Shown: piece after piece, positions 27,073 to 64,000 of the stretch
Layout: every line of letters starts with the position of its first letter
Position numbering within the stretch: the stretch's first letter is position 1
IMG/VR virus record: IMGVR_UViG_3300038428_000082
DNA: 64,000 nucleotides
From: an uncultured virus (IMG/VR IMGVR_UViG_3300038428_000082)
Lineage: Duplodnaviria > Heunggongvirae > Uroviricota > Caudoviricetes
Reading direction: 5' to 3' (one strand)
Notes under the pieces: model-generated
The model's database searches: none
What the model saw: only the letters and a program-made list of their open reading frames with translations
What the model was told of the DNA's origin: nothing
Program-made: the position numbers and the translations under genes

Positions 27073-28161
27073 ATGGAACTCGAAAAGACATCGCACAGTG
27101 AACAGTACATGGATTACTCCGGGGGTAAGGAAAATGCCCCCACGCTGACCGTTATGGTCGGCCCGGCTGGCTCAGGAAAGTCCACCCATGCCCGCAGTCT
27201 TGTCAACTGGGCAGCGGGAGCGACCGTCCGGGTAAACCGGGACACCATCCGTGCCATGCTCTACTGTGATTCCCCGTGGAACCACTCGAAGGAAGATGTG
27301 GTCCGCAAGTATGAGGAAGAGGGCATCCGTATGTTCCTCGCCATGGGACTCAACGTCATCGTGGATGACACCAACTGCGTGTCCCGCACCCGGCAAAAGC
27401 TGGAAGAGATTGCCCGTGGCGCTCGGGTAAAGTTCTGCCTGCATGTCATGAACGTGGACAAGGAAGAGTGTAAGCGGCGGAACGCCCTACGCACCGGCAA
27501 AGAATGCGTGCCCGAGGAAGCCATCGACCAACAGTTCAAGCGGCTGCGGGAAACAACCGTCCGCCCGGCTGGCTACGGTCTGGATGAAACCAACCGGGCG
27601 GTAGACGACTGGAACGAGCTTAACGCCGTCATCGCCGGGGGCAGGGACTTTCACGAGCGCCTGCCGGGCGCACCGTGGGTGTTCTGCGACGTGGACGGCA
27701 GCCTTGCCGAGAACGAGGGCGAGCGGAACCAGTTCGACGAGACGAAGGTCCTGCTGGACTCCTGCCGGGAGGGCGTGGCGAAGTGGGTCCGGGGACTGTA
27801 CAGCACCCACAATATCGGAATTCTCAGTGGAAGACACGACTCCTGCTCGACAGACACTTGTTCTTGGCTGAGTTGTTATCGGGTGCCATTCGACCTCCTC
27901 TTGATGCGCCCGGCTACCAACTTTGACCACGATTATATCGTCAAGCGACGGATTATGGAGACGATACTCCGGGTCATTCCGAAGGAACGAATAGCTTTTT
28001 TGATTGATGACAGATGGCAAGTAATCCGTATGTGGAAGGACATGGGGTTCAAGGTTTACCCTGTGGGCGGAACCACGGACCACTCTGCTACTTGCCAGTT
28101 CAAGCCGGAAAAGAAAGGTTGGAGGCATTGCCCCCGATGCGGAGCCTACGAAGATTTTTGA
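27073..28161 (+). CDS. pseT: polynucleotide 5'-kinase/3'-phosphatase (T4 Pnkp-like)
   Basis: GPAGSGKS P-loop, RVNRD and VDDTN kinase motifs; C-terminal HAD DVDG and IDDR. Confidence 0.85.
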   Translation: MELEKTSHSEQYMDYSGGKENAPTLTVMVGPAGSGKSTHARSLVNWAAGATVRVNRDTIRAMLYCDSPWNHSKEDVVRKYEEEGIRMFLAMGLNVIVDDTNCVSRTRQKLEEIARGARVKFCLHVMNVDKEECKRRNALRTGKECVPEEAIDQQFKRLRETTVRPAGYGLDETNRAVDDWNELNAVIAGGRDFHERLPGAPWVFCDVDGSLAENEGERNQFDETKVLLDSCREGVAKWVRGLYSTHNIGILSGRHDSCSTDTCSWLSCYRVPFDLLLMRPATNFDHDYIVKRRIMETILRVIPKERIAFLIDDRWQVIRMWKDMGFKVYPVGGTTDHSATCQFKPEKKGWRHCPRCGAYEDF

Positions 28162-28992: not shown

Positions 28993-29648
28993 GCATCTGT
29001 GGCAAGCCAATGCCGAAAGCGAGGAATGGAGCCGACCGGGGAATCTGCACTAGACCACATAATCATGGTCCCAAAGGTGGTTGTCACGGCAACGGCACTT
29101 GTTTCGGATGCGGTATTAAACTGACATCTTTAACATCTAGTTTTTCTGTTGCTAACCGTGGACAAGGAGAGTGTAAAGTTTGTAAAAAAGAACGGTGCAG
29201 GAAGGACCGTGGTAGCCAACCACTTAATGTCCAGAATCCCGGAGAATTTCACGCTTTTCCGTGTGGGTGCAGTGGAGTTCTCCCTGTAGAAGGTTCAAAC
29301 AAGTTTTCTATGGCAGGAACTCATCGAGGGAAAAGACAATATGTTTGTCGTGTGTCTTTCATTATCAAGGGTTCTAATGACAGAGCAAAAAAGGGGAGAT
29401 ACCAACCCATTTTTCAAGATACCCCTCATACGGTAATTCGTAAATTGATGGAGGAGCCTAACTGCGAATGTTGTGGAGAAACACTGTCATGGAAAGTGTT
29501 AGCACGTGGAAAAACTCCCCACCTTCATCATGACCATAAAACAGGCGAAATCTATGGATTCGCCCACCCAAAATGTAACCCTTTAGCAATGGAGAAAGAA
29601 ATAGAACGACTGAAAGCCTTGCTTAAAGCACAAGAGATGGATTTATGA
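28989..29648 (+). CDS. endonuclease VII-like protein
   Basis: CECC..HLHHDHKTGEIYGFAHPKCN. Confidence 0.65.
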   Translation: MSICGKPMPKARNGADRGICTRPHNHGPKGGCHGNGTCFGCGIKLTSLTSSFSVANRGQGECKVCKKERCRKDRGSQPLNVQNPGEFHAFPCGCSGVLPVEGSNKFSMAGTHRGKRQYVCRVSFIIKGSNDRAKKGRYQPIFQDTPHTVIRKLMEEPNCECCGETLSWKVLARGKTPHLHHDHKTGEIYGFAHPKCNPLAMEKEIERLKALLKAQEMDL

Positions 29649-30898
29649 AGCTTGAAAATCTGCTAAACATTGACGAACTGAACAAGCAAATCAGGGAGGG
29701 TTTTATCAATGAGCGCCGTCACCCCGCACTGCCCCTGCGAATCCTGAATTACTCGAATCGTTGTACTTTCGAGAATCACTGGTCTCTTGAAGCTTGTATC
29801 TGCCGTGGTCTGATTGTGGATGACGCCGGGGTGATTGTATCCAGACCCCCATCAAAATTTTTCAACCTCAACCAAAGAGGACCCCACATTTTCCGCAACA
29901 ATCAGGGGGAGTTGGAAGTTCAAGACGAGACGTTCACCCCAGAGTTCCTCCTCGGGCAGGCGAAGATGTGGAGGTCTCCTATAACCATCACCCGCAAGCT
30001 GGATGGGTGGGCGGGAATCTCGTGGCACTACGAGGGCATCTACGGGGTCGCCAGCCGGGGTTCCTTTGACTCGCCGGGGGCGCAGTATGCCACGGAGAAG
30101 GTGCAGAAGTTCGTCAAGTATAGGGCGTTCGCTGATTTCCTTCCCGAGGATACCACTCTGTTCTTTGAGATTATCTCCAAGATTACCAAGGTGGTTGTCC
30201 CCTACAACTTCGAGGGGCTGGTGCTTATTGCTGCCATTGCCAACGAGACCGGGGAGGAATTGGAATACCCCGAGCTTGAGGCTTTCCACAAGCAGCTAAA
30301 CAGCTATGCCAAGGACCGGGACTGGTGCCGGTTGGTGCCGAAGTTCGACATGTCGGTGGAAGAGTGCATGGCGGACAAGGACATGACGGAGGAGGGCTAT
30401 GTTGCTGCCGTCTACCGGCCTCACTTCCCGCCTGTCCGGGCGAAGGTGAAGCTCGCCGAGTACTGTAGAATCCACAGGATTGTCACGGGAGTCACACCCC
30501 AGAAAATCTGGCAAGAAATGCACAATCCCATGTCTCCCTGGCTTGACCATAACAGCAAGCTGAACCATAATACAGGTGAAGTCCTCTACGATTTGTCTGT
30601 TCCAAGGGACTTTGCCAAATGGGTCAAAGGTTGGCAGATGGGATTGTACAAGGCGTTCCACGATAAGCTTTTGCAAGCCCTGAAAGCACAGAAGGCTTAC
30701 AACGAGTTAGAGCGTGGCATCTACCCTGAGCACCGAAACAGGCTGCACTACTTGCATGGGTGTTTTCCCGTTGATATTGTCAATGCTGCCATCAAGCTAG
30801 AGAACGGCAACATTGTTGGAGCCTATGAGATTTTATGGAAGATGGTTCGTCCCTATGGTCGGGAGGAAACATACTATTTCGATGGCAAGGGAGAATGA
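29645..30898 (+). CDS. RNA ligase (T4 Rnl1-like)
   Basis: CRGLI, KFFN, motif I RKLDG, SRGSF, FFEI, EGYV, KVK. Confidence 0.85.
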   Translation: MKLENLLNIDELNKQIREGFINERRHPALPLRILNYSNRCTFENHWSLEACICRGLIVDDAGVIVSRPPSKFFNLNQRGPHIFRNNQGELEVQDETFTPEFLLGQAKMWRSPITITRKLDGWAGISWHYEGIYGVASRGSFDSPGAQYATEKVQKFVKYRAFADFLPEDTTLFFEIISKITKVVVPYNFEGLVLIAAIANETGEELEYPELEAFHKQLNSYAKDRDWCRLVPKFDMSVEECMADKDMTEEGYVAAVYRPHFPPVRAKVKLAEYCRIHRIVTGVTPQKIWQEMHNPMSPWLDHNSKLNHNTGEVLYDLSVPRDFAKWVKGWQMGLYKAFHDKLLQALKAQKAYNELERGIYPEHRNRLHYLHGCFPVDIVNAAIKLENGNIVGAYEILWKMVRPYGREETYYFDGKGE

Positions 30899-55479: not shown

Positions 55480-55869
55480 CTATGGACATGGGTTGGTTTT
55501 GATGTCCAGCAACTCCGGGGGAAGCTCGGGGTCGGTATAAAATAGAATGGCTCCGTTTTTTCCCCAAAAATCCAGAACTTTAAGCAACTTCCCCACGAGT
55601 TCGGGATGGGTTGGATTGTACCACCTGTCCGGTCCAATGTTGACCCAAACAATCTTACGTTGCTGGTCTCCCGGTACAAGGTCAAAGAGGAAGCGTTCCC
55701 CGACAATAACAATAACATCCGACCAATCGAACAGCACTCGCTTGGTAGCCTCGGAGGTGTATCCCAATCCTACTGATAGAACGTCTCGCTGACCATGGTT
55801 CAGCTTTAGCAGCATAGCCAACGATACCGACCTGCTGTTTCCACCGTAGTAGCAGCAAAGAATCCTCAT
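55480..55869 (-). CDS. low-molecular-weight protein-tyrosine-phosphatase-like protein
   Basis: MRILCCYYGGNSRS..WSDVIV. Confidence 0.55.
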   Translation of the reverse strand: MRILCCYYGGNSRSVSLAMLLKLNHGQRDVLSVGLGYTSEATKRVLFDWSDVIVIVGERFLFDLVPGDQQRKIVWVNIGPDRWYNPTHPELVGKLLKVLDFWGKNGAILFYTDPELPPELLDIKTNPCP

Positions 55870-56078
55870 GCGGTCTCCAATCCCTCCGGGCGACCCTTCG
55901 TCCAGGTCTTCGCCACGGGGTACTGGATTACCCGCCCTCCAGGGTAGACCTTGTACAGCCACTCCGGGCGGTCGTCTACCTGCGCCCATACGACACGCCC
56001 GAGGTTCTCCGAGTGCCCCTTGGCATCGTTCAAGGAGGCTACGACCCTCACGTTTCGCTTATCGCAATCGAGCAGCAT
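55866..56078 (-). CDS. hypothetical protein
   Basis: AAGGA RBS; overlaps the next start. Confidence 0.5.
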   Translation of the reverse strand: MLLDCDKRNVRVVASLNDAKGHSENLGRVVWAQVDDRPEWLYKVYPGGRVIQYPVAKTWTKGRPEGLETA

Positions 56079-56096
56079 ATGGTGTTCCTTGGGAAT

Positions 56097-56171
56097 TGGA
56101 AGGGGAACCGGGAGTCCAACCCGGATTGCCCGTTTAGAAGACGGGTGCCTTTTGCGTTAGACGATTCCCCC
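56097..56171 (-). tRNA. tRNA-Arg(TCT)
   Basis: CCCGT-CTTCTAA-ACGGG; CCA end; variant T loop TTGGACT. Confidence 0.8.
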
Positions 56172-56178
56172 GTAAATT

Positions 56179-56268
56179 TGGTACCCCCGGCAGGACTCGA
56201 ACCTGCGATGCCTTTCGGCATAGACAGTTTAGGAAACTGTTGCGATGTCCATCTCCGCTCACGGGGGC
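56179..56268 (-). tRNA. tRNA with CCT (Arg) anticodon and long variable arm
   Basis: ACAGT-TTCCTAA-ACTGT; extra arm ATGCC-GAAA-GGCAT; ACCA end. Confidence 0.8.
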
Positions 56269-56278
56269 GTAAACTTGT

Positions 56279-57076
56279 TTATTTCCTTCCTAGCCTCCAA
56301 CCATCACAGAGGCGGTTAATAACTTCGGATGCCGCAATTTTGATTGCTACGCCATCTTTACATAACCAGCGCACAGGTGGTCTTTTTCTATTAGCTTCCC
56401 TCAAGGCTGCTATTACATGCACCGGTCGTGGTTTCCCACGCTTTGCCTTGGCTATTTTTTCACCAAAGCCTTCTGGCATTTTTTTGCCTTTATTCCAAGC
56501 CGAGGTTCTTCCTTTTAATGCTTCCCGCATTTTTTGCTTACTGGTATCGGAGTGTTTCCAGCCAGACTTGTGGGGAGCTTGTGGTTTTCCAGCTCTTCTC
56601 CTGTTTGATTCTGCAACAGCCTTTCTAGTGCTTTCTGGGACTGAGTGTCCCCTTTGGGAGGCACTCATCCTTTGTCTAGTCTGCTCTGAACAATGCTTAC
56701 CAAACATTGGATTTCTTTCGCCTTTGTTCGCCTCTTTGAATTTTTGACGAGTAGCCTCATTCGCAACTACCCCTCCGCCTCCAAGAGTTGAGTTGTATCC
56801 ATATTCAGGGTCGCACGCCTTAAACTTTTCAATATAGGAGACCTCAAGGGTATCCAATTCTTCTTTGGAGAAGGCAACATTTATACGATAGGCTTTGAAG
56901 CTACCTTCTCCATATTTTCGGATGGCATTATAGAAGTATGCACAATTTGTCCCACCCGCTTTGGCTCTCCTACAATGAGCCAGCCATCGCTCGTGCAGGG
57001 TTCTTATGGTTTGCCCGATATATACCTTGTTGTTGACTTGGTTTACGATAATGTATACTTCCCCATATGGCTCCAC
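56279..57076 (-). CDS. GIY-YIG endonuclease with NUMOD3 repeats (Seg-like)
   Basis: VYIIVN..YIGQT; GYNST; MFGKHCSEQTRQRMS. Confidence 0.85.
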   Translation of the reverse strand: MEPYGEVYIIVNQVNNKVYIGQTIRTLHERWLAHCRRAKAGGTNCAYFYNAIRKYGEGSFKAYRINVAFSKEELDTLEVSYIEKFKACDPEYGYNSTLGGGGVVANEATRQKFKEANKGERNPMFGKHCSEQTRQRMSASQRGHSVPESTRKAVAESNRRRAGKPQAPHKSGWKHSDTSKQKMREALKGRTSAWNKGKKMPEGFGEKIAKAKRGKPRPVHVIAALREANRKRPPVRWLCKDGVAIKIAASEVINRLCDGWRLGRK

Positions 57077-57109
57077 TTAAACTCTCCTTCAATGAATGGG
57101 GTAAGTAGT

Positions 57110-57661
57110 TCATTTATCAAGTACAACATTCCAGTATAGGTACGGTGCGTAATCTTTCCACTCGTTCCTTATCTTGCTGATATGCAGCTTGAAGTTGAAG
57201 CGGGGGTCCGTGGGCTTCGGCGTATAGGGCTTGCTGAGCAAGGTCATGCCCGCCTGCGCCGGGGTACGTCCGGCCTTTTCCTTGTTGCACGGCATACAGG
57301 CGATGGCAAGGTTGTCCCAGTCGGACTTGCCCTTCTGGCAAAGCGGGATGACGTGGTCAATCGTGTATTCCGAGGTGTGGACCACCTTGCCGCAGTACTG
57401 GCATGTTGCATTGTCACGCACTAACAGGTTGCGCCGGGTGCAGGGGACGGACTGCTTCTTACGGCGATGCCAAGCGTTGCGAACGACTATCACCCTTGGC
57501 ATGCCCATTTCAAAGGACGGTGAGTGCAGGACCTTCCCGCCCTCGTCCTCCTTGACAATCTTGGCACGGTCCTCGAACCAGAGCTTGACGGCGTTCTGCC
57601 AGCCCATGAAGCCCACGGGTATCCAGTTCATGTCTAGTACAAGTACGTCAGCGTATCCCAT
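57110..57661 (-). CDS. McrA-like HNH endonuclease
   Basis: VLVLD..RDNATCQYCG..TIDHVIP..WDNLAIAC..CN.EKAGRTP; AAGGAGG RBS. Confidence 0.85.
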   Translation of the reverse strand: MGYADVLVLDMNWIPVGFMGWQNAVKLWFEDRAKIVKEDEGGKVLHSPSFEMGMPRVIVVRNAWHRRKKQSVPCTRRNLLVRDNATCQYCGKVVHTSEYTIDHVIPLCQKGKSDWDNLAIACMPCNKEKAGRTPAQAGMTLLSKPYTPKPTDPRFNFKLHISKIRNEWKDYAPYLYWNVVLDK

Positions 57662-57679
57662 AGAGCCTCCTTATCTAAG

Positions 57680-58245
57680 ATTCGGAAAACCGTTAATCCT
57701 CGCTCGTTGCCACACCGAATGTGATCGATGGCTAATTGCCGGTAAGCCTGCGCACGACCCCTATAGCCGTCCATCGCTCTTCGCACTCCGGTATCCGCCC
57801 ATAGGACTAGGCGGCGAGTCAAGCTTTTAGGGTTTGGGCGGGGTGTAACCGGTCTTCTCTCAGGTTCATATCCATCGAATTGGCCGGTCTCATTGCCGTA
57901 CACCATACGGGTTGATGTGGTCGGGTTTCTTATGGTGTCTCACCCCGAGGCCCACTGCGTTGTCCTAACGCTCTCACCCCGCCCGAACAGCGCCCCTGTG
58001 ACCACGCCCTTAAGACATCGCCCCCGGTTATGTCAACTCACCAGAGACTTAGGTCGGTCAGGAGCACCAACTTAAACCCAACGGCGTGCAGCCAGCGTAC
58101 TGGCGGTTTGGCTTCGCTTTCTACGGGGTTAATGACCGGTCCCCCTCGTCGCCCGGAAGCCGCTTGTGCAGGCACGGTATCCCGATTTCTGCCACGACAA
58201 CCGTTCCCATCAGTCTTGCCGACCCTACGGGACCTTGCACGCCAT
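57680..58245 (-). ncRNA. large structured non-coding RNA (unidentified)
   Basis: No credible ORF; helices GGCGTGCA/TGCACGCC and GGGCGGGGTG/CACCCCGCCC plus many hairpins; GTGGTATTAC promoter motif at 58251-58260. Confidence 0.6.
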
Positions 58246-58284
58246 TCTTGGTAATACCACAGAGATTGAGAAACAAACGAATAA

Positions 58285-58629
58285 TTAAATTTCAGGATGG
58301 TGCTCCTTCCTGTGACAGTTAGAGCATAGTATTTCGCATTTTCTTATCTCAGCAAGGATTCGTTTCTTTCCCCAACCTTGGTTCACAGCTTGCCTTATTG
58401 ACATGTCTTTTTTGCTTGAATCTCTATGATGAAAATCTAAACATGCAGGATGATTTTCCGGGCAACGAGCACATTTTAGAGAGCGTTTGAACTCCTTGAA
58501 CCAATCTCTAATTTCTTTCCTTTGGTTCTTTGCTCGGATAAGATATGGCTCTTTGTGATTTTGATAATGTTTTCTCCTGTATGCTTTCATTTCTTCTTGA
58601 TGAGATGTTTTCCAAGCTTCTGTCGCCAT
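58285..58629 (-). CDS. HNH-like endonuclease
   Basis: CARC..LDFHH..KCEILCSNCHRKEH. Confidence 0.8.
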   Translation of the reverse strand: MATEAWKTSHQEEMKAYRRKHYQNHKEPYLIRAKNQRKEIRDWFKEFKRSLKCARCPENHPACLDFHHRDSSKKDMSIRQAVNQGWGKKRILAEIRKCEILCSNCHRKEHHPEI

Positions 58630-58704
58630 ACAATCCTCCAATATATGAGTTGCATAGCGTAGATTTGGAGACTCTATCTGCACCAAAAATTTACATTAGA
58701 ATCT

Positions 58705-58794
58705 TGGCAGGGGTGGAGGGATTTGAACCCCCAGTATCCCGAAGGAAGACGGTTTTGGAGACCGCTGGGCCGAACCAGATTGCCCGTCACCCCT
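58705..58794 (-). tRNA. tRNA-Trp(CCA) with long variable arm
   Basis: GCGGT-CTCCAAA-ACCGT; extra arm TCC-TTCG-GGA; GCCA end. Confidence 0.8.
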
Positions 58795-58802
58795 AAACTC
58801 AC

Positions 58803-59117
58803 GCCGGTGTCTTATCCAAATAAACGAAGGTCAAGACCAAGAGTACCATGGTTATCTTGGTCACAGCTACCATGAGGCTACGCTGTACCATGTCCTACGG
58901 GGACTCGAACCCCGTTTTTCCGGCTGCATCATGGGAGACGCTCTACCATTGAGCTACGCCCCGCATGGCGGGGCGACGGGACTCGAACCCGCAACCTTCT
59001 CCCTGAATCAATCCCCGGTATCCTACCATTGAATGACGGGTCGCTGGGGGCGTTCTGCCTGACGGGAAGGCTACTCCATGCGATTATCCGGTGGGACTCG
59101 AACCCACATTTTCCGGG
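58803..59117 (-). ncRNA. three tandem circularly permuted tRNA-like units
   Basis: Each unit reads anticodon-stem 3' strand, T arm (TTCGAGT), acceptor, D arm, anticodon-stem 5' strand. Confidence 0.75.
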
Positions 59118-59123
59118 CTAGCT

Positions 59124-59198
59124 TGGCTCCGAGGGGAGGACTCGAACCTCTCATTAACCGGGTCAGAGCCGGTTCTCCTACCGTTAGAGGACTCTGGA
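59124..59198 (-). tRNA. tRNA-Gln(CTG)
   Basis: ACCGG-CTCTGAC-CCGGT; slightly irregular acceptor; GCCA end. Confidence 0.8.
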
Positions 59199-59261
59199 AT
59201 ATCTTGCTATTTACGTCAACTTTTAGCCCCAGAGGGGTAAACTTGACGTATAAATCAATCT

Positions 59262-59340
59262 TGGTCGGCGTGGGGAGATTTGAACTCCCGACCCCTCCGC
59301 CCCGAACGGAGTGCTCTAAACCGGGCTGAGCTACACACCG
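59262..59340 (-). tRNA. tRNA-Pro(CGG)
   Basis: CTCCG-TTCGGGG-CGGAG; ACCA end. Confidence 0.9.
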
Positions 59341-59350
59341 AAAATTTAAA

Positions 59351-59941
59351 TCAGACGACCCCGGAATAATCTTTGCTTTTATTTCCCGGAACCCAATCCG
59401 CAAATAACCCAAGCTCCCTAACTTTTCGCATTGTATCAGCGATTAGTAACCACGCTTTGTAGGGCATATTTCCTCGAACAATGTTACATCTTGTGCAACA
59501 GGGAATTACGTTACTTTTCAAATGACCCCGCATGTTATCTAATCGGTCCAACCCAATGCGTAGTTCTCTTTGGGTTACTCCACAGTATCGGCAGCCAGTG
59601 GATATAAGAGCAGCTACGTAGTTCCGGTCAAGGTCGCAGGCAAACCCATGGCGTTTATCCCAACTCTTGCAGTCGTTTGTAACATGCCTTGCTTCGCCTT
59701 TATACCTTTGGGTGCTTAGAGTCTGTTTCCTTCGCTCGTAAACCCCCTCGGTCATTCCATGTCGAGGTTTCCAACGTTTGTTATGCTTATTAAAGCAAAT
59801 ACGGCATAGAAATCGGTAATACTTATTCCCATTAGACCAACGTGTTGGGAAGTTCTTACCGTCCTCAGTTAATGCCTTCCCACATTTTTTGCAGATGTGT
59901 GGAAGTCTTACATTCACTCCACCAACTTCTTGACTCTTCAT
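59351..59941 (-). CDS. HNH-like endonuclease
   Basis: CRYCG..GLDRLDN..GH..NVIPCCTRCN. Confidence 0.8.
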   Translation of the reverse strand: MKSQEVGGVNVRLPHICKKCGKALTEDGKNFPTRWSNGNKYYRFLCRICFNKHNKRWKPRHGMTEGVYERRKQTLSTQRYKGEARHVTNDCKSWDKRHGFACDLDRNYVAALISTGCRYCGVTQRELRIGLDRLDNMRGHLKSNVIPCCTRCNIVRGNMPYKAWLLIADTMRKVRELGLFADWVPGNKSKDYSGVV

Positions 59942-59985
59942 ACTAATAGATACTGAAGTCAGAAGATTGGTCGGAGTGATATTTT

Positions 59986-60060
59986 TGGTCGGGGCGAGAG
60001 GATTTGAACCTCCAACGACTTGCTCCCAAAGCAAGTGGGTTACCGTTACCCTACGCCCCG
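59986..60060 (-). tRNA. tRNA-Pro(TGG)
   Basis: CTTGC-TTTGGGA-GCAAG; ACCA end. Confidence 0.9.
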
Positions 60061-60097
60061 GCACAAGTTAGGCCGTTCAGCTACAGCCCGTAAACTT

Positions 60098-60172
60098 TGG
60101 TCAGGTCCGGCAGAGTCGAACTGCCAATCACTAGTCCCCCAGACTAGGGCATTACCATTATGCTAGGACCTG
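60098..60172 (-). tRNA. tRNA-Pro(GGG)
   Basis: CTAGT-CTGGGGG-ACTAG; ACCA end. Confidence 0.88.
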
Positions 60173-60328
60173 ATAATGGAGGTTTGGCAGTACTCCCCCA
60201 GCTAATCAGAGCCAGTACTCGTCAACCTCCAAACGGTGACGGACAATGGGAGGTTTTCACCTCTCGGGCCTCAGCCCACATACTCAAACCGGTTAGCCTT
60301 GCCAGTCCAGTATGCTTCCGCCATAACT

Positions 60329-60403
60329 TGGTAGCTCGCACAGGAATCGAACCTGTGACATCCGCCTTATGAGAGCGGCGTTCTGCCACTGAACTAGCGA
60401 GCC
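60329..60403 (-). tRNA. tRNA-CAT (elongator Met or Ile2)
   Basis: CCGCT-CTCATAA-GGCGG; paired 1:72; ACCA end. Confidence 0.88.
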
Positions 60404-60520
60404 AGAACGTACGTGGTGTTTGGGAGCCATGATGGTTGCGCTGCGCCACACCATGAGTATGTTACCCGACAATTACGCCGCCCAAACAATGGCCTTTTAA
60501 GGGGCACTCACGTACGGCTT

Positions 60521-60595
60521 GAGTTGCATGGGTGGAATCGAACCACCGACCTCCCGGTACCCCGGTCGCTCTTCCGCTGAGCTACAAGACAACCC
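60521..60595 (-). ncRNA. anticodon-less tRNA-like element
   Basis: Normal D and T arms, but the anticodon arm is CCGG-GGTA-CCGG (4-nt loop); elongated acceptor; no CCA. Confidence 0.65.
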
Positions 60596-60600
60596 TAAGA

Positions 60601-60677
60601 TGGTAGCGGGGATGGGAATTGAACCCACCTTTACAGAGCTTATGAGACTCCGAAACTCACCAGAGTTATACCCCGCA
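60601..60677 (-). tRNA. tRNA-Met(CAT), initiator-like
   Basis: TGCGGGG 5' end with 1:72 mismatch; CTCATAA loop; ACCA end. Confidence 0.82.
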
Positions 60678-60730
60678 TCAAACCATACGCTACACCGCAT
60701 ATCTGTTGCTAATACGCTGTAGCGTATCAA

Positions 60731-60806
60731 GGTTGCGGAGGCTGGATTTGAACCAGCGGCCTGTTGGTTATGAGCCAACCGAGCTACCTGACTGCTCTAC
60801 TCCGCT
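60731..60806 (-). tRNA. tRNA-Met(CAT), initiator-like
   Basis: AGCGGAG-TAGAGCAG..GGTAGCTC; A1:A72 mismatch; GTTGG-CTCATAA-CCAAC; ends ACCT. Confidence 0.85.
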
Positions 60807-60812
60807 ATAACT

Positions 60813-60889
60813 TGGTGCCTCCCCAGAGAGTCGAACTCTGTTCTCCCGCTCTTCAGGCGGGCGCTATGCACCGCATCAGCTAAAGAGGC
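60813..60889 (-). tRNA. tRNA-Phe(GAA)
   Basis: CCCGC-CTGAAGA-GCGGG; ACCA end. Confidence 0.88.
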
Positions 60890-60964
60890 AAAACCAAACT
60901 TTCAAACTTCTCGGCATTATCTTGAGAGCACCTTAAGTCCTATAATACGCTCTCAAGAGCATCT

Positions 60965-61040
60965 TGGTGGGTCGGGAGGGAATCGAACCCTCAACCTTGG
61001 GCTTAAGAGGCCCCTGCTCTGCCAGTTAAGCTACCGACCC
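60965..61040 (-). tRNA. tRNA-Lys(CTT)
   Basis: GGGC-CTCTTAA-GCCC; ACCA end. Confidence 0.9.
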
Positions 61041-61045
61041 AAATT

Positions 61046-61122
61046 TGGTACCGCCGAGAGGACTCGAACCTCCAACTCCTCGGGCAAGAGCCGAGTACTC
61101 TGTCCAGTTGAGTTACGGCGGC
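61046..61122 (-). tRNA. tRNA with CTT (Lys) anticodon on an Arg-like body
   Basis: CTCGG-CTCTTGC-CCGAG; D loop AACTGGACA; ACCA end. Confidence 0.8.
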
Positions 61123-61128
61123 ACATCT

Positions 61129-61208
61129 TGGTGGAGCCGGTGGATTGGGTGCCCACGACCGTCCGCTTAAAAGGCGGCTACGCTTAACCACATCTGCGTC
61201 ACGACTCC
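61129..61208 (-). tRNA. tRNA-Lys(TTT) with aberrant T loop
   Basis: CCGC-CTTTTAA-GCGG; T arm GTGG-GCACCCAAT-CCAC; ACCA end. Confidence 0.7.
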
Positions 61209-61214
61209 ATATTT

Positions 61215-61289
61215 TGGCTCTGGAGGAGGGAATCGAACCCCCAACCATTCGGTTAACAGCCGAACGCTCTACCGTTGAGCTACTCCAGA
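61215..61289 (-). tRNA. tRNA-Asn(GTT)
   Basis: TTCGG-CTGTTAA-CCGAA; GCCA end. Confidence 0.9.
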
Positions 61290-61454
61290 AGAAACTGTCT
61301 CCTTCTCAGGCGGATATATAGACGAGTTGTTATGACACATCGTCCCTGAGTGCTCGCCTGAACCATACAACGGCTGGTGCTGTTTGCCCTCACAACCTGC
61401 CAACCAAGGGCGACCCTCATCACACCAGCGACACTCGCTCATACGACCTCAAAC

Positions 61455-61528
61455 TGGCTGGGACGGCAGGACTCGAACCTGCATTCTCCGGGTAACAGCC
61501 GGGCATCTTACCATTGGATGACATCCCA
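61455..61528 (-). tRNA. tRNA-Asn(GTT), Gln-like body
   Basis: CCGG-CTGTTAC-CCGG; TGGGATG 5' end; GCCA end. Confidence 0.82.
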
Positions 61529-61675
61529 ACAAACAGTGACCAGTGACAACCGCCCTCCGCAGGGGCGGGAAGTGCATAGCTGGGGACCTCGCCTGTTCCG
61601 AAGAACTGGTGCCCTGCTTACCACCGAACCCATCAGACTCGCCATCCCTTTGGGTGCGTCACGTGGTCTCAATCT

Positions 61676-61755
61676 TGGAAGCCCCGAGGGGATTTGAACC
61701 CACTGACCTTCGGTTTCGTAGACCGCTGCTCTAGTCCGGGCTGAGCTACGGGGCC
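61676..61755 (-). tRNA. tRNA-Arg(ACG)
   Basis: CGGT-CTACGAA-ACCG; TCCA end. Confidence 0.88.
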
Positions 61756-62162
61756 TCAATCTTGTACCAACCTCTTTCTTTCGCTGTTTTACGACGGTGA
61801 CAGTTGGCGCATCGCACGTCGCACTTAACTATCTCAGCCTTTATCGTCTTTAATGATGCCTTCATTTGTGTCATTAAAGTTGAAACGGCTGCTAATTTCT
61901 TTTCTCCTTCCCGATGGTCAAACTCAAGGACTATCGGGTCAGATTCTCCACAGTCGATACAGGGGTGAGTCATCAAATACTGTAAGACCCACTCTATGGC
62001 TTCTTTCCTATACCTTGCACCATTCCGTTTCGCTTTTTCAACATACGAGGTCTTATTCCTCTCGTAGTTTTGCTTATTGTAGCCTCGCTGGCATTCGAGG
62101 CAGTATGGTGCTGACCGGTGCTCTTTTTCCTTACCACATTTGTAACAGTTCTTAGACCTCAT
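61746..62162 (-). CDS. HNH-like endonuclease whose stop codon lies inside tRNA-Arg(ACG)
   Basis: CIDCG..LEFDH..KCDVRCANCHR. Confidence 0.8.
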   Translation of the reverse strand: MRSKNCYKCGKEKEHRSAPYCLECQRGYNKQNYERNKTSYVEKAKRNGARYRKEAIEWVLQYLMTHPCIDCGESDPIVLEFDHREGEKKLAAVSTLMTQMKASLKTIKAEIVKCDVRCANCHRRKTAKERGWYKIEAP

Positions 62163-62201
62163 ACTAAAGGACTACGAAGTCCAATTACTGTTTTCAAATC
62201 T

Positions 62202-62277
62202 TGGAACCCCTGACAGGATTCGGACCTGCGACCATCCGGGTCGAAACCGGGCGCTCTGTCCACTGAGCTACAGGGGC
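62202..62277 (-). tRNA. tRNA-Arg(TCG)
   Basis: CCGG-TTTCGAC-CCGG; TCCA end. Confidence 0.85.
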
Positions 62278-62283
62278 CTAATC

Positions 62284-62361
62284 TGGAAGTCCCGGTCGGA
62301 TTTTAACCGACGACCTTCTCCTTCGGAGGGAGTTGCTCTATACGGGCTGAGCTACGGGACC
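62284..62361 (-). tRNA. tRNA-Arg(CCG)
   Basis: CTCC-CTCCGAA-GGAG; TCCA end. Confidence 0.82.
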
Positions 62362-62367
62362 ATATAT

Positions 62368-62439
62368 TGGGGTGAATGACGAAGTGGGCTGCCCCCGCCC
62401 CCTCGGACCAGACCGAGTACCCTGTGGGGTTCACTCACC
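62368..62439 (-). ncRNA. His-like tRNA mimic with degenerate loops
   Basis: GGTGAGTG/CATTCACC-CCA acceptor as in tRNA-His; 6-nt loop TCTGGT; no TTC loop. Confidence 0.6.
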
Positions 62440-62444
62440 AAACT

Positions 62445-62519
62445 TGGGGTGACTGAGGGGAATCGAACCCCCGTATCCTGATTCACAGTCAGGCACTCTG
62501 CCACTGAGTTACAGTCACC
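62445..62519 (-). tRNA. tRNA-His(GTG)
   Basis: G-1:C73; CCTGA-CTGTGAA-TCAGG; CCA end. Confidence 0.9.
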
Positions 62520-62574
62520 ATAAACGCAAAAAACCCACCCAAAAACCCATCTTATGACTTCCACTGTCTTTAAT

Positions 62575-62931
62575 ATGGGACAGTGGATTCATAGAATGCT
62601 TTTTGTTAACAAAGAAACTAAAACCGGGCTTTGTGCCGCCTGTGGAGATGTTAAAGTGCGACTCAAAGGTGGTAAGTATCTTTGCCGTAACTCACAAGCC
62701 CGTTGGACTGGAAGGTGTAACTACCCCTCTCATCCATACCGAGATAAGTCAAACCCCCCGAGAGTCTGCGATGAATGCGGCTTTGTTGCTAAATGCTCGT
62801 GCCAGATTGACATCCATCACATTGATGACAACCACGCTAACAATCAGCCAGAGAACCTCCGTCCTCTATGCGTATGTTGTCACCGACTCATTCACTGCAA
62901 GTGCAAAATAAAAAAGCCCACAGAACCTTGA
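62575..62931 (+). CDS. HNH endonuclease, antisense to the tRNA operon
   Basis: CDECG..IDIHHIDDNHANNQPENLRPLCVCCH. Confidence 0.8.
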   Translation: MGQWIHRMLFVNKETKTGLCAACGDVKVRLKGGKYLCRNSQARWTGRCNYPSHPYRDKSNPPRVCDECGFVAKCSCQIDIHHIDDNHANNQPENLRPLCVCCHRLIHCKCKIKKPTEP

Positions 62932-62942
62932 GTTCGGTGGGC
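62905..62942 (-). terminator. attenuator terminator of the tRNA operon
   Basis: GCCCAC-C-GAAC-TCAAG-GTTC-T-GTGGGC-TTTTTTATTTT. Confidence 0.85.
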
Positions 62943-62968
62943 ATCCTTGCACTCTGTTCGCTTTTTCG

Positions 62969-63064
62969 CTATGCGACTCCTGCGAACGGAAGCCCACCGA
63001 AGCTTGGGCGGCTAAAATGCCGCTTAGGCTGCCACTGCATCGGGTTTGGTTTCCTATTTCGCAT
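62969..63064 (-). CDS. leader peptide MRNRKPNPMQWQPKRHFSRPSFGGLPFAGVA
   Basis: GGAGA RBS; codons match the downstream tRNA set; overlaps the antiterminator TTCGGTGGGC (62992-63001). Confidence 0.8.
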   Translation of the reverse strand: MRNRKPNPMQWQPKRHFSRPSFGGLPFAGVA

Positions 63065-63077
63065 GTCTCTCCAAAAC

Positions 63078-63145
63078 TGGTGCCCCTTTCGGGGCGTAAA
63101 ATGGTAGGGGCTTTCGCCCCCTCAAACTGGTGGGCCTTTCGGCCC
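63078..63145 (-). repeat. three GAAA-tetraloop hairpins, each followed by ACCA
   Basis: GGGCC-GAAA-GGCCC-ACCA; GGGGGC-GAAA-GCCCCT-ACCA; GCCCC-GAAA-GGGGC-ACCA. Confidence 0.85.
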
Positions 63146-63248
63146 GGAATCTTGTGAGGCTGACCGGGTAACAATATCGTCCGGCTCCCCGCCTCAATTT
63201 TACCCCTACAAGTATAGGGTCGGTAGTTCGTTTTCTTCCTTCACTTAC

Positions 63249-63258
63249 ATAATACCAC
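63249..63258 (-). promoter_or_regulatory. putative promoter of the tRNA operon
   Basis: CGTGGTATTATGTAAGTG matches the GTGGTATACTGTAAGTG motif seen at 3156. Confidence 0.65.
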
Positions 63259-63509
63259 GGTTTTGGGAGAATATGGGGATTTTTTTAATCGGCCATTTAT
63301 TTACTGTGAACCTAACTTTAGTTCCCGATAACTTGTCTGATTTCCATTGGTTAGCCGTTCAGCCCGTATATCCCCGGTATTACCTCAAGGGCTGTCCAAA
63401 TACTTCCCACCGGTCAACAAACCCGTCACTTCCTTTGTAACCCCGGATAAGCCGATTGGAGTTAATGACCGGATTAGAGTAAAGCGGCATCGTGGGAACC
63501 ATAATGTAT

Positions 63510-63971
63510 TCAGGTTCCCTCCCATGAAATTTCCAACCAAGTATGATACATGTTGTAGGGTGTCTCGGAGCCGCATTCGCCGCCGCTGTTCAAATAAGCG
63601 GCACTGTCATCATGCTCCACCCACCCTTCTTTGACCGTGACTTTGTAGCCGTCTCGGCGTAGCTTGGTGATGATTTTCTTTAGCTCGGCAGCGAACTCAA
63701 AATTCTTGAAAAACTTCTGTTCCCCGGCAAGCGGGCGGTCAGTCCAATTCTCCGTGGATAGCCGGTAGTCTTCAATTTTTGTTATGCCGTCTTTTATACG
63801 GGCGTCAATACGCCATTGAATGTCTTCGAGAGTTTTGGCGTAGTACTCTTTCCGCTTTTTCTCTTCCGCAGCCGCCCGCTGAACCTTGCGCTTGGCGGAC
63901 TCCTCCACTTTCTCCCGAGCAATACGTTCAGCGTTGGTCTCAGCGAGCGCCCTTGCTTCCGCTGCCCTCAT
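63510..63971 (-). CDS. hypothetical protein
   Basis: GAGG RBS; charged helical N-terminus. Confidence 0.6.
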   Translation of the reverse strand: MRAAEARALAETNAERIAREKVEESAKRKVQRAAAEEKKRKEYYAKTLEDIQWRIDARIKDGITKIEDYRLSTENWTDRPLAGEQKFFKNFEFAAELKKIITKLRRDGYKVTVKEGWVEHDDSAAYLNSGGECGSETPYNMYHTWLEISWEGT

Positions 63972-64000
63972 AGCCACTTCCTCTCTTTCCAATGTTTCAC

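Follow-up and report, generated by a model that had tools for sequence, protein, structure and literature searches.

A probable leader-peptide transcription attenuator gating a tRNA operon in an uncultured phage

We analyzed a 64,000-nucleotide stretch of DNA (the window) from an uncultured virus of the class Caudoviricetes (IMG/VR record IMGVR_UViG_3300038428_000082). The source genome is a viral contig of 140,398 bp that is ~70% complete, and the 64-kb window represents its reverse strand. On the minus strand of the window, a short open reading frame (ORF), here called leader A, is followed by an intrinsic terminator and then by a large array of tRNA genes (array A). An earlier reading made from the letters alone (the original prediction) had proposed that this ORF belongs to an attenuator polling nearly every tRNA of the array. 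In the direction of transcription, the elements are as follows.

63241..63258, minus strand: promoter-like motif GTGGTATTATGTAAGTGA of the extended -10 type (TGnTATTAT), from sequence and recurrence; putative promoter
63065..63240, minus strand: 5' untranslated leader with one long hairpin and three GNRA-tetraloop hairpins, from sequence and folding
63069..63072, minus strand: Shine-Dalgarno-like GGAG, 4 nt 5' of the leader ATG, read from the sequence
62969..63064, minus strand: leader ORF of 31 codons plus TAG, MRNRKPNPMQWQPKRHFSRPSFGGLPFAGVA, read from the sequence and the ORF list
63014..63064, minus strand: putatively polled core, codons 1-17, each decodable by the anticodons of array A under wobble-rule matching
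63032..63049, minus strand: region 1 (protector), codons 6-11, which pair with region 2 when the full-length leader is folded to minimum energy
62987..63005, minus strand: region 2, the 5' strand of the predicted antiterminator, codons 20-26, from folding
62956..62987, minus strand: hairpin GTTCGC...GCGAAC around the stop codon TAG (62971-62969), within the antiterminator helix
62905..62942, minus strand: intrinsic terminator, with a stem-loop at 62942-62916 (-15.5 kcal/mol) and a T-run at 62915-62905, from folding
56097..62518, minus strand: tRNA array A with interspersed homing-endonuclease genes, from ARAGORN and Rfam

The codons of leader A match array A

Array A encodes tRNAs for His, Arg (three), Asn (two), Lys (three), Phe, Met (three), Pro (three), Gln-CUG, Trp, Arg-CCU and Arg-UCU. 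ARAGORN detected 19 tRNAs with 15 distinct anticodons. The total of 16 anticodons given by the original prediction stands, but ARAGORN alone does not yield it: the sixteenth, Lys-UUU (61132-61208), was found only with Rfam (35.8 bits), and its anticodon was read from the loop. Under standard wobble rules, these 16 anticodons read 21 codons.

The leader ORF has a start codon and a putative ribosome-binding site. It reads ATG CGA AAT AGG AAA CCA AAC CCG ATG CAG TGG CAG CCT AAG and continues, from codon 15 onward, with CGG CAT TTT AGC CGC ... TAG. All of codons 1-17 fall within the 21-codon set of array A, and 15 of the 16 anticodons are represented in the ORF, the sole miss being tct/AGA, so the leader codons are cognate to what the operon supplies. 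We scored every stop-free 17-codon window of the 140,398-bp genome in its six frames. Only one of 159,848 windows scored 17 out of 17, and that window is the leader ORF. Because it is the only such window in the genome, we regard the codon match as real and far beyond chance. The ORF sequence (which we place at 63064-62969 on the minus strand), the decodability of codons 1-17, the count of 15 anticodons with only AGA missing and the improbability of the match had all been put forward in the original prediction, and each was reproduced by our own computation, the last of them now as a genome-wide count.

The original prediction also suggested inspecting other arrays of this genome for matching upstream ORFs. 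The second array (array B) contains, with default ARAGORN settings, one Tyr, four Leu and three Ser tRNAs, that is, class-II tRNAs only; a fourth Ser tRNA (tga) appeared at a lowered threshold. It has its own Leu/Ser/Tyr leader and terminator.

Genome 57852-57990, outside the window: leader B, MKNLSSNSLSYSSSLLLSGLVLPDGWDG, with terminator GGCGGCTAACAAGCCGCC and TTTTTT, directly before tRNA-Tyr

Leader B reads ATG AAG AAC CTA TCG TCC AAC TCG TTA TCG TAT AGT AGC, followed by TCA TTG CTG CTT AGC GGC CTC .... It is the top 15-codon window of 169,526 for the codon set of array B and samples all eight anticodons detected by default.

Related phages carry one matched leader per array

A relative, G002 (316,945 bp, 99% complete), encodes a protein upstream of the array that is 85% identical to its counterpart in the window genome, and carries four tRNA arrays. 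At all four, a matched leader is followed by a terminator.

Array A': same set of tRNAs as array A; leader peptide MRNRKPNPMQWQPKRHF...
Array B': Tyr, Leu, Ser; leader peptide MKNLSSNSLSSLSYSSSLLS...
Array C: Val, Gly, Ala, Asp, Glu, Cys; leader peptide ...VDLIEAVAAVCEGGD...
Array D: Ile, Thr, Gln-UUG; leader peptide MLTITMPHTQTQTTIS...

The arrays of G002 (L006, L007, L008 and L009) partition the genetic code into a class-II set, the GNN amino acids plus Cys, a set of Ile, Thr and Gln-UUG, and the remainder, and the two Gln isoacceptors lie in separate arrays. The leaders follow this split. Leader A has two CAG codons, and Gln-CUG is the only Gln tRNA of array A; the two Gln codons of leader D are CAA, and its array has Gln-UUG alone.

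Single-protein searches yielded only five close relatives. We found wider relatives by aligning the RlaP-type nucleotidyltransferase that is encoded beside array A. Its identity to the homologs is 58% in G003, 64-65% in L065 and L066, 48% in L071 and 42% in L096, and all of these carry leaders of the same design. No cultured relative was present in the phage collection, where the best RlaP identity was 27%.

To compare the leaders, we tabulated for 13 of them how many of codons 2-18 can be read by each array. The table is block-diagonal. A leaders reached 11-17 out of 17 with their own arrays where most of the array is present in the sequence, and 0-5 with arrays of types B, C and D. Leader L71_A reached only 2, since its locus contains no more than two tRNAs before the contig ends. 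For B leaders the scores were 8-14 with B arrays and 2-6 with A arrays. Leader D scored 10 on its own array, and leader C scored 7 because its core sits at codons 11-25. The anticodons sampled were as follows.

A leaders: W_A 15/16, G2_A 15/16, G3_A 12/14, L65_A 13/15, L66_A 13/16, L96_A 7/7, L71_A 2/2
Other leaders: W_B 8/8, G2_B 9/9, G3_B 8/9, L96_B 5/5, G2_C 11/12, G2_D 5/5

The leaders change with their arrays. The order of the A-type core varies with its amino-acid set kept (for instance, MRFRNPNPQMHWQPKRN in L065), and in B-type cores Leu, Ser and Tyr codons are added, lost and rearranged. The class-II block of L096 contains three Ser tRNAs, Met and Leu-UAA, and neither ARAGORN nor Rfam revealed a Tyr tRNA in it. 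The leader of this block, MKNTLSISTSSSSSSSST..., has 12 Ser codons, a single Leu codon (TTA) and no Tyr codon. The A-type leader of L096 has no Phe codon in its core, from which we would predict that tRNA-Phe is missing from its A-type array. The codon-anticodon correspondence that the original prediction proposed to look for in related phages is thus present, and leader composition follows array content even in distant relatives.

The terminator has a predicted competing partner inside the leader ORF

The terminator consists of GCCCACCGAAC-TCAAG-GTTCTGTGGGC followed by TTTTTTATTTT, begins 26 nt past the leader stop codon and thus lies between the leader ORF and the genes it would regulate. 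It is absent from the list of a simple consensus scan, which was limited to gapless stems with loops of 3-8 nt. Region 2 contains TTCGGTGGGC (63001-62992), a perfect 10-bp complement to the 5' arm of the terminator. The duplex of regions 2 and 3 has a predicted energy of -25.8 kcal/mol, compared with a mean of -13.0 for shuffled sequences (z -5.8).

In the minimum-energy fold of the full-length leader, codons 6-11 are paired to region 2 and the terminator is formed. When the 3' arm of the terminator is left out, TTCGGTGGGC in region 2 pairs with the 5' arm instead and encloses the stop-codon hairpin. The predicted antiterminator therefore shares one strand with the terminator, and its other strand lies where a ribosome could mask it. 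The stop codon lies within an apical hairpin in the predicted folds of all six leaders of the window genome and G002. Folding the alternative structures, as the original prediction had suggested, thus agrees with trp-type logic, and the terminator (which we place at 62942-62905) and the 10-bp complement of its 5' arm agree with its description. Its proposed protector pairing through AGCCTA (codons 12-14) did not hold up, since the minimum-energy fold pairs region 2 with codons 6-11.

The layout recurs in all 13 leaders: the ORF has 24-33 codons, the stop codon lies 24-30 nt upstream of the terminator, and the strongest complement of the 5' arm falls in the distal ORF (codons 17-30) every time. 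In 10 of the 13 leaders this complement is stronger than in 300 dinucleotide shuffles (p <= 0.023).

We modeled the ribosome as a crude 27-nt footprint that was moved codon by codon along the leader in equilibrium folding. For leader A of the window, the modeled terminator probability was 0.02-0.29 with the ribosome at codons 4-14 and 0.98 with the ribosome at distal codons. A ribosome on the distal ORF gave terminator probabilities of 0.96-1.00 in 13/13 leaders, and a ribosome on core codons reduced the probability in 11 of the 13. We also folded transcripts of six leaders that were cut before the 3' arm. With a core stall, the terminator 5' arm was paired upstream with a probability of 0.8-0.97 (6/6 leaders); with a distal ribosome, this value was ~0.1-0.7, mostly 0.2-0.55 (6/6 leaders).

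Conservation of the reading frame, codons and helices

The leader reading frame is intact in five lineages, and overlapping ORFs are disrupted. Two longer ORFs overlap the leader, at 62866-63174 (minus strand, 102 aa) and at 62868-63107 (plus strand, 79 aa). Both lose their frame to a 1-nt indel in the relative L004, where the leader frame survives, and we rejected them as genes for this reason.

L004/G002, G003, L065 and L066 all retain the core of the A-type peptide, and most of the changes in it are synonymous. All five lineages keep the exact codons CGA, AGG and CGG for Arg, CCG for Pro, AAG for Lys and CAG for Gln; Lys AAA is kept in the three closest lineages. Most synonymous swaps stay within the codons of a single tRNA (AAT/AAC, TTT/TTC and CCT/CCC), with CCA to CCC as the exception. 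Swaps of this kind fit selection on the polled tRNA, but simple transitions would give the same pattern.

The conservation of the three helices was assessed in an alignment of the five A-type lineages, using 500 shuffles and slid controls.

Terminator helix: 92.3% of cells paired; 5/11 pairs changed on both sides; 4/500 shuffles (both-sides count); slid controls <=53.8%
Antiterminator helix: 80.9% of cells paired; 1/14 pairs changed on both sides; 144/500 shuffles (cells paired); slid controls <=50.7%
Protector helix: 84.7% of cells paired; 1/17 pairs changed on both sides; 53/500 shuffles (cells paired); slid controls <=49.4%

The antiterminator and the protector are conserved, and covariation is no proof of them.

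A candidate attenuation mechanism

The elements themselves, their complementarity, their conservation, the codon-anticodon match with its statistics and the in-silico folds are direct observations. We consider it probable that they form a ribosome-mediated (leader-peptide) attenuator controlling transcription of a phage tRNA operon, and that it senses the decoding speed of the codons that the operon serves. The trp/his-type logic of the original prediction is supported in silico by the matched leaders of the relatives and by the masked folding. Attenuators of this type usually precede genes for amino-acid biosynthesis or transport. Downstream of leader A there are 19-20 tRNAs and homing-endonuclease genes, and because the regulated genes are tRNAs we classify the element as a variant of the attenuators and not as a classical member.

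Promoter use, leader translation, stalling, read-through and feedback are the steps that we infer. Transcription would start at the conserved promoter-like motif, and the 31-codon leader would be translated. If the polled aminoacyl-tRNAs were all plentiful, the ribosome would clear the 17-codon core, enter the distal ORF and cover region 2 as regions 3 and 4 are being transcribed; the terminator would form and transcription would halt at the U-run. If any polled tRNA were scarce, the ribosome would stall in the core and mask region 1. Region 2 would then be free to pair with region 3, no terminator would form, and the polymerase would continue into the array. The new tRNAs would quicken decoding and close the operon again. 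Since the product consists of the polled tRNAs themselves, this would amount to negative feedback on tRNA supply. One such leader would serve each isotype-sorted array, with four in the complete relative G002.

With somewhat less than even confidence, we suggest that the four attenuators jointly poll nearly the whole genetic code, tRNA species by tRNA species, as a viral circuit for surveillance and replacement of host tRNAs. A tRNA that is drained or cut by the host or during phage takeover (for example, by anticodon nucleases) would switch on only the affected block. Such a circuit would act alongside RNA-repair genes of the phage. These encode Pnk (polynucleotide kinase/phosphatase; 27073-28161, plus strand), a T4-type RNA ligase (29645-30898, plus strand) and the RlaP-type 'RNA repair pathway' nucleotidyltransferase (G000:C1:75413-76435), which lies directly upstream of array A. 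In the relative, it would also act alongside a phage RNase P RNA and transfer-messenger RNA (tmRNA). The circuit would then be a semi-autonomous, feedback-controlled regulon for the upkeep of translation. The repair genes are consistent with pressure on tRNAs and are no proof of it.

Weighing the alternatives

The same machinery could respond to amino-acid starvation through uncharged tRNA, as the trp, his and ilv attenuators do. The structure cannot separate a shortage of charged tRNA caused by a missing amino acid from one caused by a missing tRNA, and multivalent amino-acid attenuators are well established. Extra tRNA would not relieve amino-acid starvation, however, so the output would mismatch the signal. 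The Gln codons are divided by tRNA species, with CAG and Gln-ctg together in A and CAA and Gln-ttg together in D, and each synonymous Arg, Pro, Lys, Leu and Ser codon is sampled about once. Both features fit a sensor of tRNA species and do not fit one of amino acids. We therefore judge a starvation signal to be improbable. We regard as quite improbable that the ORF encodes a small functional peptide, or serves as an expression aid, in front of a constitutive terminator or insulator, with the codon match as a by-product. The A-type peptide is indeed conserved at the amino-acid level, and the terminator of the window genome also faces a convergent HNH gene. Yet B-type leaders reshuffle, gain or lose Leu, Ser and Tyr codons with their composition kept, and four unrelated peptides each match their own array. 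In addition, the terminator of the relatives lies immediately before the first tRNA with no other promoter between, and the complementarity of region 2 to the terminator arm exceeds that of shuffled sequences.

The logic could also run in reverse, with efficient translation of the leader needed for read-through, for instance because the ribosome melts the terminator or blocks Rho, and the array would then be expressed only if decoding were already working. Translation-coupled antitermination of this sort is known in bacteria. In all 13 leaders, however, a ribosome terminating 24-30 nt before the terminator would be too distant to cover the hairpin, and in folding a ribosome on the distal ORF raised the terminator probability to 0.96-1.00 and never lowered it, which makes this reading highly improbable. 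Finally, the ORF was singled out only after it had been seen in the original prediction, so one may ask whether it is an accidental ORF beside an ordinary terminator. Leader A ranks first of 159,848 windows and leader B first of 169,526 before the other array, the pattern repeats across 13 leaders, and the 1-nt indel of L004 breaks the longer overlapping ORFs with the leader frame preserved. Chance is scarcely credible.

Several observations sit uneasily with attenuation by tRNA supply, the reading that we prefer. Some concern the codon match. AGA is never polled despite the Arg-tct tRNA in array A, TTA is polled in the window genome and no Leu-taa tRNA was detected there, AGC and AGT are polled by L96_B where no Ser-gct was detected, and TTA is missing from G3_B even though its array has Leu-taa. 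Codons 1-15 encode identical residues in the window and G003, with synonymous changes only, and such conservation at the amino-acid level could instead reflect a function of the peptide itself. Others concern the structures. The antiterminator and protector helices barely covary, and their shuffle control is not significant. Leaders C and D showed no switch in equilibrium folding. When the 27-nt mask sits exactly on the stop codon, the antiterminator re-forms in W_A and G2_B; the model therefore requires kinetic coupling or steric exclusion. In the window genome, ~445 nt including the convergent HNH gene divide the terminator from array A, and a 1.43-kb insert (G000:C1:56413-57839) separates the promoter of array B from leader B.

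RNA data offer a weak hint that the leader is transcribed. Metatranscriptome contigs from two runs of two studies (X1 and X2) cover a leader of the G002 type, with the same differences from the window as L004. The contigs share one end at window position 63195/6, with no loose end. The X2 contig (281 nt), if collinear with L004, reaches approximately the T-run of the terminator, a few nucleotides before tRNA-His, and the X1 contig (1,353 nt) runs on through tRNA-His and the Arg tRNAs. Such contigs are blind to strand, level and true ends, DNA carry-over is possible, and cleavage by RNase P would explain the downstream boundary just as well. Contig depths and stretches lacking contig cover carry no weight in this reading.

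Relation to known systems

Leader-peptide attenuation is the textbook case of a cell gauging its own translation speed, and is used for amino-acid operons and a few others. The enterobacterial examples include trp, his, pheA and leu and the multivalent thr (Thr, Ile) and ilvGMEDA (Leu, Val, Ile) leaders. Like these, and as far as sequence and folding tell, the phage leaders combine a short ORF rich in regulatory codons with mutually exclusive protector, antiterminator and terminator helices and a U-run, and a ribosome stalled in the core is predicted to free region 2. Unlike these, they would regulate tRNAs and not biosynthetic enzymes. Their core has no run of a single codon but samples up to 15 anticodons about once each, and their stop codon lies in the antiterminator loop, 24-30 nt before the terminator. 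They are also phage-borne, with one leader per isotype-sorted array, and match no leader family in Rfam.

T-box riboswitches bind one uncharged tRNA directly, without translation, and mostly control aminoacyl-tRNA synthetase or amino-acid genes. The phage leaders would share with them the sensing of tRNA status and the choice between terminator and antiterminator upstream of translation-related genes. They differ in having an ORF that is putatively translated, in the many tRNAs that they would poll and in the lack of a T-box match when the leader regions were scanned with Rfam. In Salmonella, the mgtCBR and mgtA leaders sense charged-tRNA levels through proline-codon and other leader ORFs. There too, the codon-specific decoding speed of a short ORF picks between RNA structures, as we propose here; those leaders control transporter and virulence genes in response to one amino acid, whereas the phage leader would control tRNAs and read many codons. 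Phage T4 counters the anticodon nuclease PrrC with its tRNA cluster, polynucleotide kinase and RNA ligase 1. The phage studied here resembles T4 in its Pnk, its T4-type RNA ligase, the RlaP-type repair gene beside array A and its large tRNA arrays.

The mechanism of attenuation is known, and its application to tRNA genes, the multi-anticodon sensor and the phage host fall outside the described families; the combination appears to be unpublished. A literature search, whose coverage largely excluded subscription journals, returned no paper on leader-peptide control of tRNA genes, in line with the original prediction, which was aware of no multi-codon attenuator described for a phage tRNA operon. 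To our knowledge, and within the same coverage, no regulated, demand-driven expression of phage tRNAs has been reported.

If the proposed mechanism is correct, phage tRNA sets would be demand-regulated and self-limiting rather than constitutive cargo, which bears on the role of tRNAs in phages (codon bias, host shut-off or defence evasion). One leader would report on up to 15 tRNA species, unlike classical attenuators, and could be used as a compact natural sensor of tRNA availability. It would also provide a regulatory explanation for the sorting of tRNA genes into isotype blocks. The attenuator parts span ~160 nt and are portable to reporter assays and defined in-vitro translation systems.

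Comparison with cultured phages and RNA families

In order to assess how widespread the design is, we used an automated control that takes the best 12-codon window within 350 nt upstream of a tRNA block and ranks it against all windows of the locus. Every leader of the family that falls inside these 350 nt is recovered by the test with a share of <=0.0005. Among 16 tRNA blocks of seven cultured phages, none reached <=0.0005, and the best share was 0.0015. The script was run on mar003J3, Vibrio D484, BUCTxx99, Spud, BRock and Moby. In RAS14 it found no block of at least three tRNAs, and inspection by eye revealed no convincing leader. Because the blocks of cultured phages lack a comparable window, the design is not universal among ORFs that precede tRNAs; it is specific to some phages with isotype-sorted arrays. 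The share of 0.0015 belongs to Vibrio phage D484 (OZ195935.1, L055:7497 block), in which 10 of the 12 codons of the window KKQNNNFYVRKE are readable by a mixed block. This window may be a weak leader or may reflect mere AT-rich composition.

Leader A does not match a curated Rfam leader or riboswitch family, such as the amino-acid operon leaders or the T-box: in window positions 55500-64000 searched at E <= 1, there was no match within 62900-63260. For the regions of leaders B, C and D at E <= 0.05, only tRNA, tmRNA, RNase P and chance hits were returned.

Promoter-like motif and 5' untranslated leader

The motif GTGGTATWATRTRAGTGA, ~190 nt upstream of leader A, is common to leaders A, B and C. 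In the 140-kb genome, scanned with <=2 mismatches, it occurs three times: before leader A, before the leader region of array B and once divergently. In G002 it precedes leaders A', B' and C and also a tmRNA. The promoter named in the original prediction is thus a conserved element, and its function as a promoter is presumed. A scan of viral contigs returned 35 loci, of which only 11 are followed by tRNAs; these 11 all belong to the same two lineages. The remaining 24 have no downstream tRNAs and were taken as chance matches.

Between the motif and the ORF, three GC-rich hairpins with GAAA tetraloops lie in tandem (63145-63132, 63120-63107 and 63095-63082, minus strand). Each is directly followed by ACCAGTTT or ACCATTTT. 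In L004, hairpin 1 shows a compensatory change of its stem from GGGCCgaaaGGCCC to GGCCCgcaaGGGCC, and its loop changes from GAAA to GCAA.

Mobile genes and other RNAs of the arrays

Both attenuators of the window genome have been struck by mobile DNA, and the leaders and terminators themselves are intact. In and beside array A we found the following.

62554..62931, plus strand: HNH-like homing-endonuclease ORF of 125 aa, an insertion that separates the terminator from tRNA-His (Pfam HNH_3, E 7.6e-4, below the cut-off)
62522..62540, minus strand: second copy of the 3' half of the terminator with its T-run (GGGTGGGTTTTTTGCGTTT), immediately before tRNA-His and homologous to the end of the L004 terminator; a duplicate left by the HNH insertion
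61746-62162, 59351-60064, 58285-58686, 57110-57661 and 56279-57076, minus strand: other homing-endonuclease genes in array A

The genes within the array are of HNH types plus one GIY-YIG type. L004 does not have the HNH-like ORF and has 53-56 nt where the window genome has ~445 nt. The original prediction, which placed the leader before the first tRNA, was correct as to its upstream position, but in the window genome the HNH-like ORF intervenes on the opposite strand before tRNA-His.

Two further RNA genes lie shortly downstream of array C in the relative G002, one for a bacterial class-A RNase P RNA (191 bits against a gathering score of 100) and one for a tmRNA (124 bits). The window genome, at 70% completeness, yielded neither.

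L007:2483-2791, minus strand: RNase P RNA of G002, from Rfam
L007:4949-5302, minus strand: tmRNA of G002, from Rfam

Array A of the window contains two tRNA-like elements (58917-59015 and 60524-60591, minus strand). One of them has a sub-threshold match to YrlA (Y-RNA-like; 41.9 bits, gathering score 69), and the other has a tRNA match of 32.8 bits and an aberrant anticodon arm. In the same array, ARAGORN reported tRNA-Arg(CCU) (56179-56268, minus strand) and tRNA-Trp (58705-58794, minus strand) as 90 nt each, far above the norm for class-I tRNAs.

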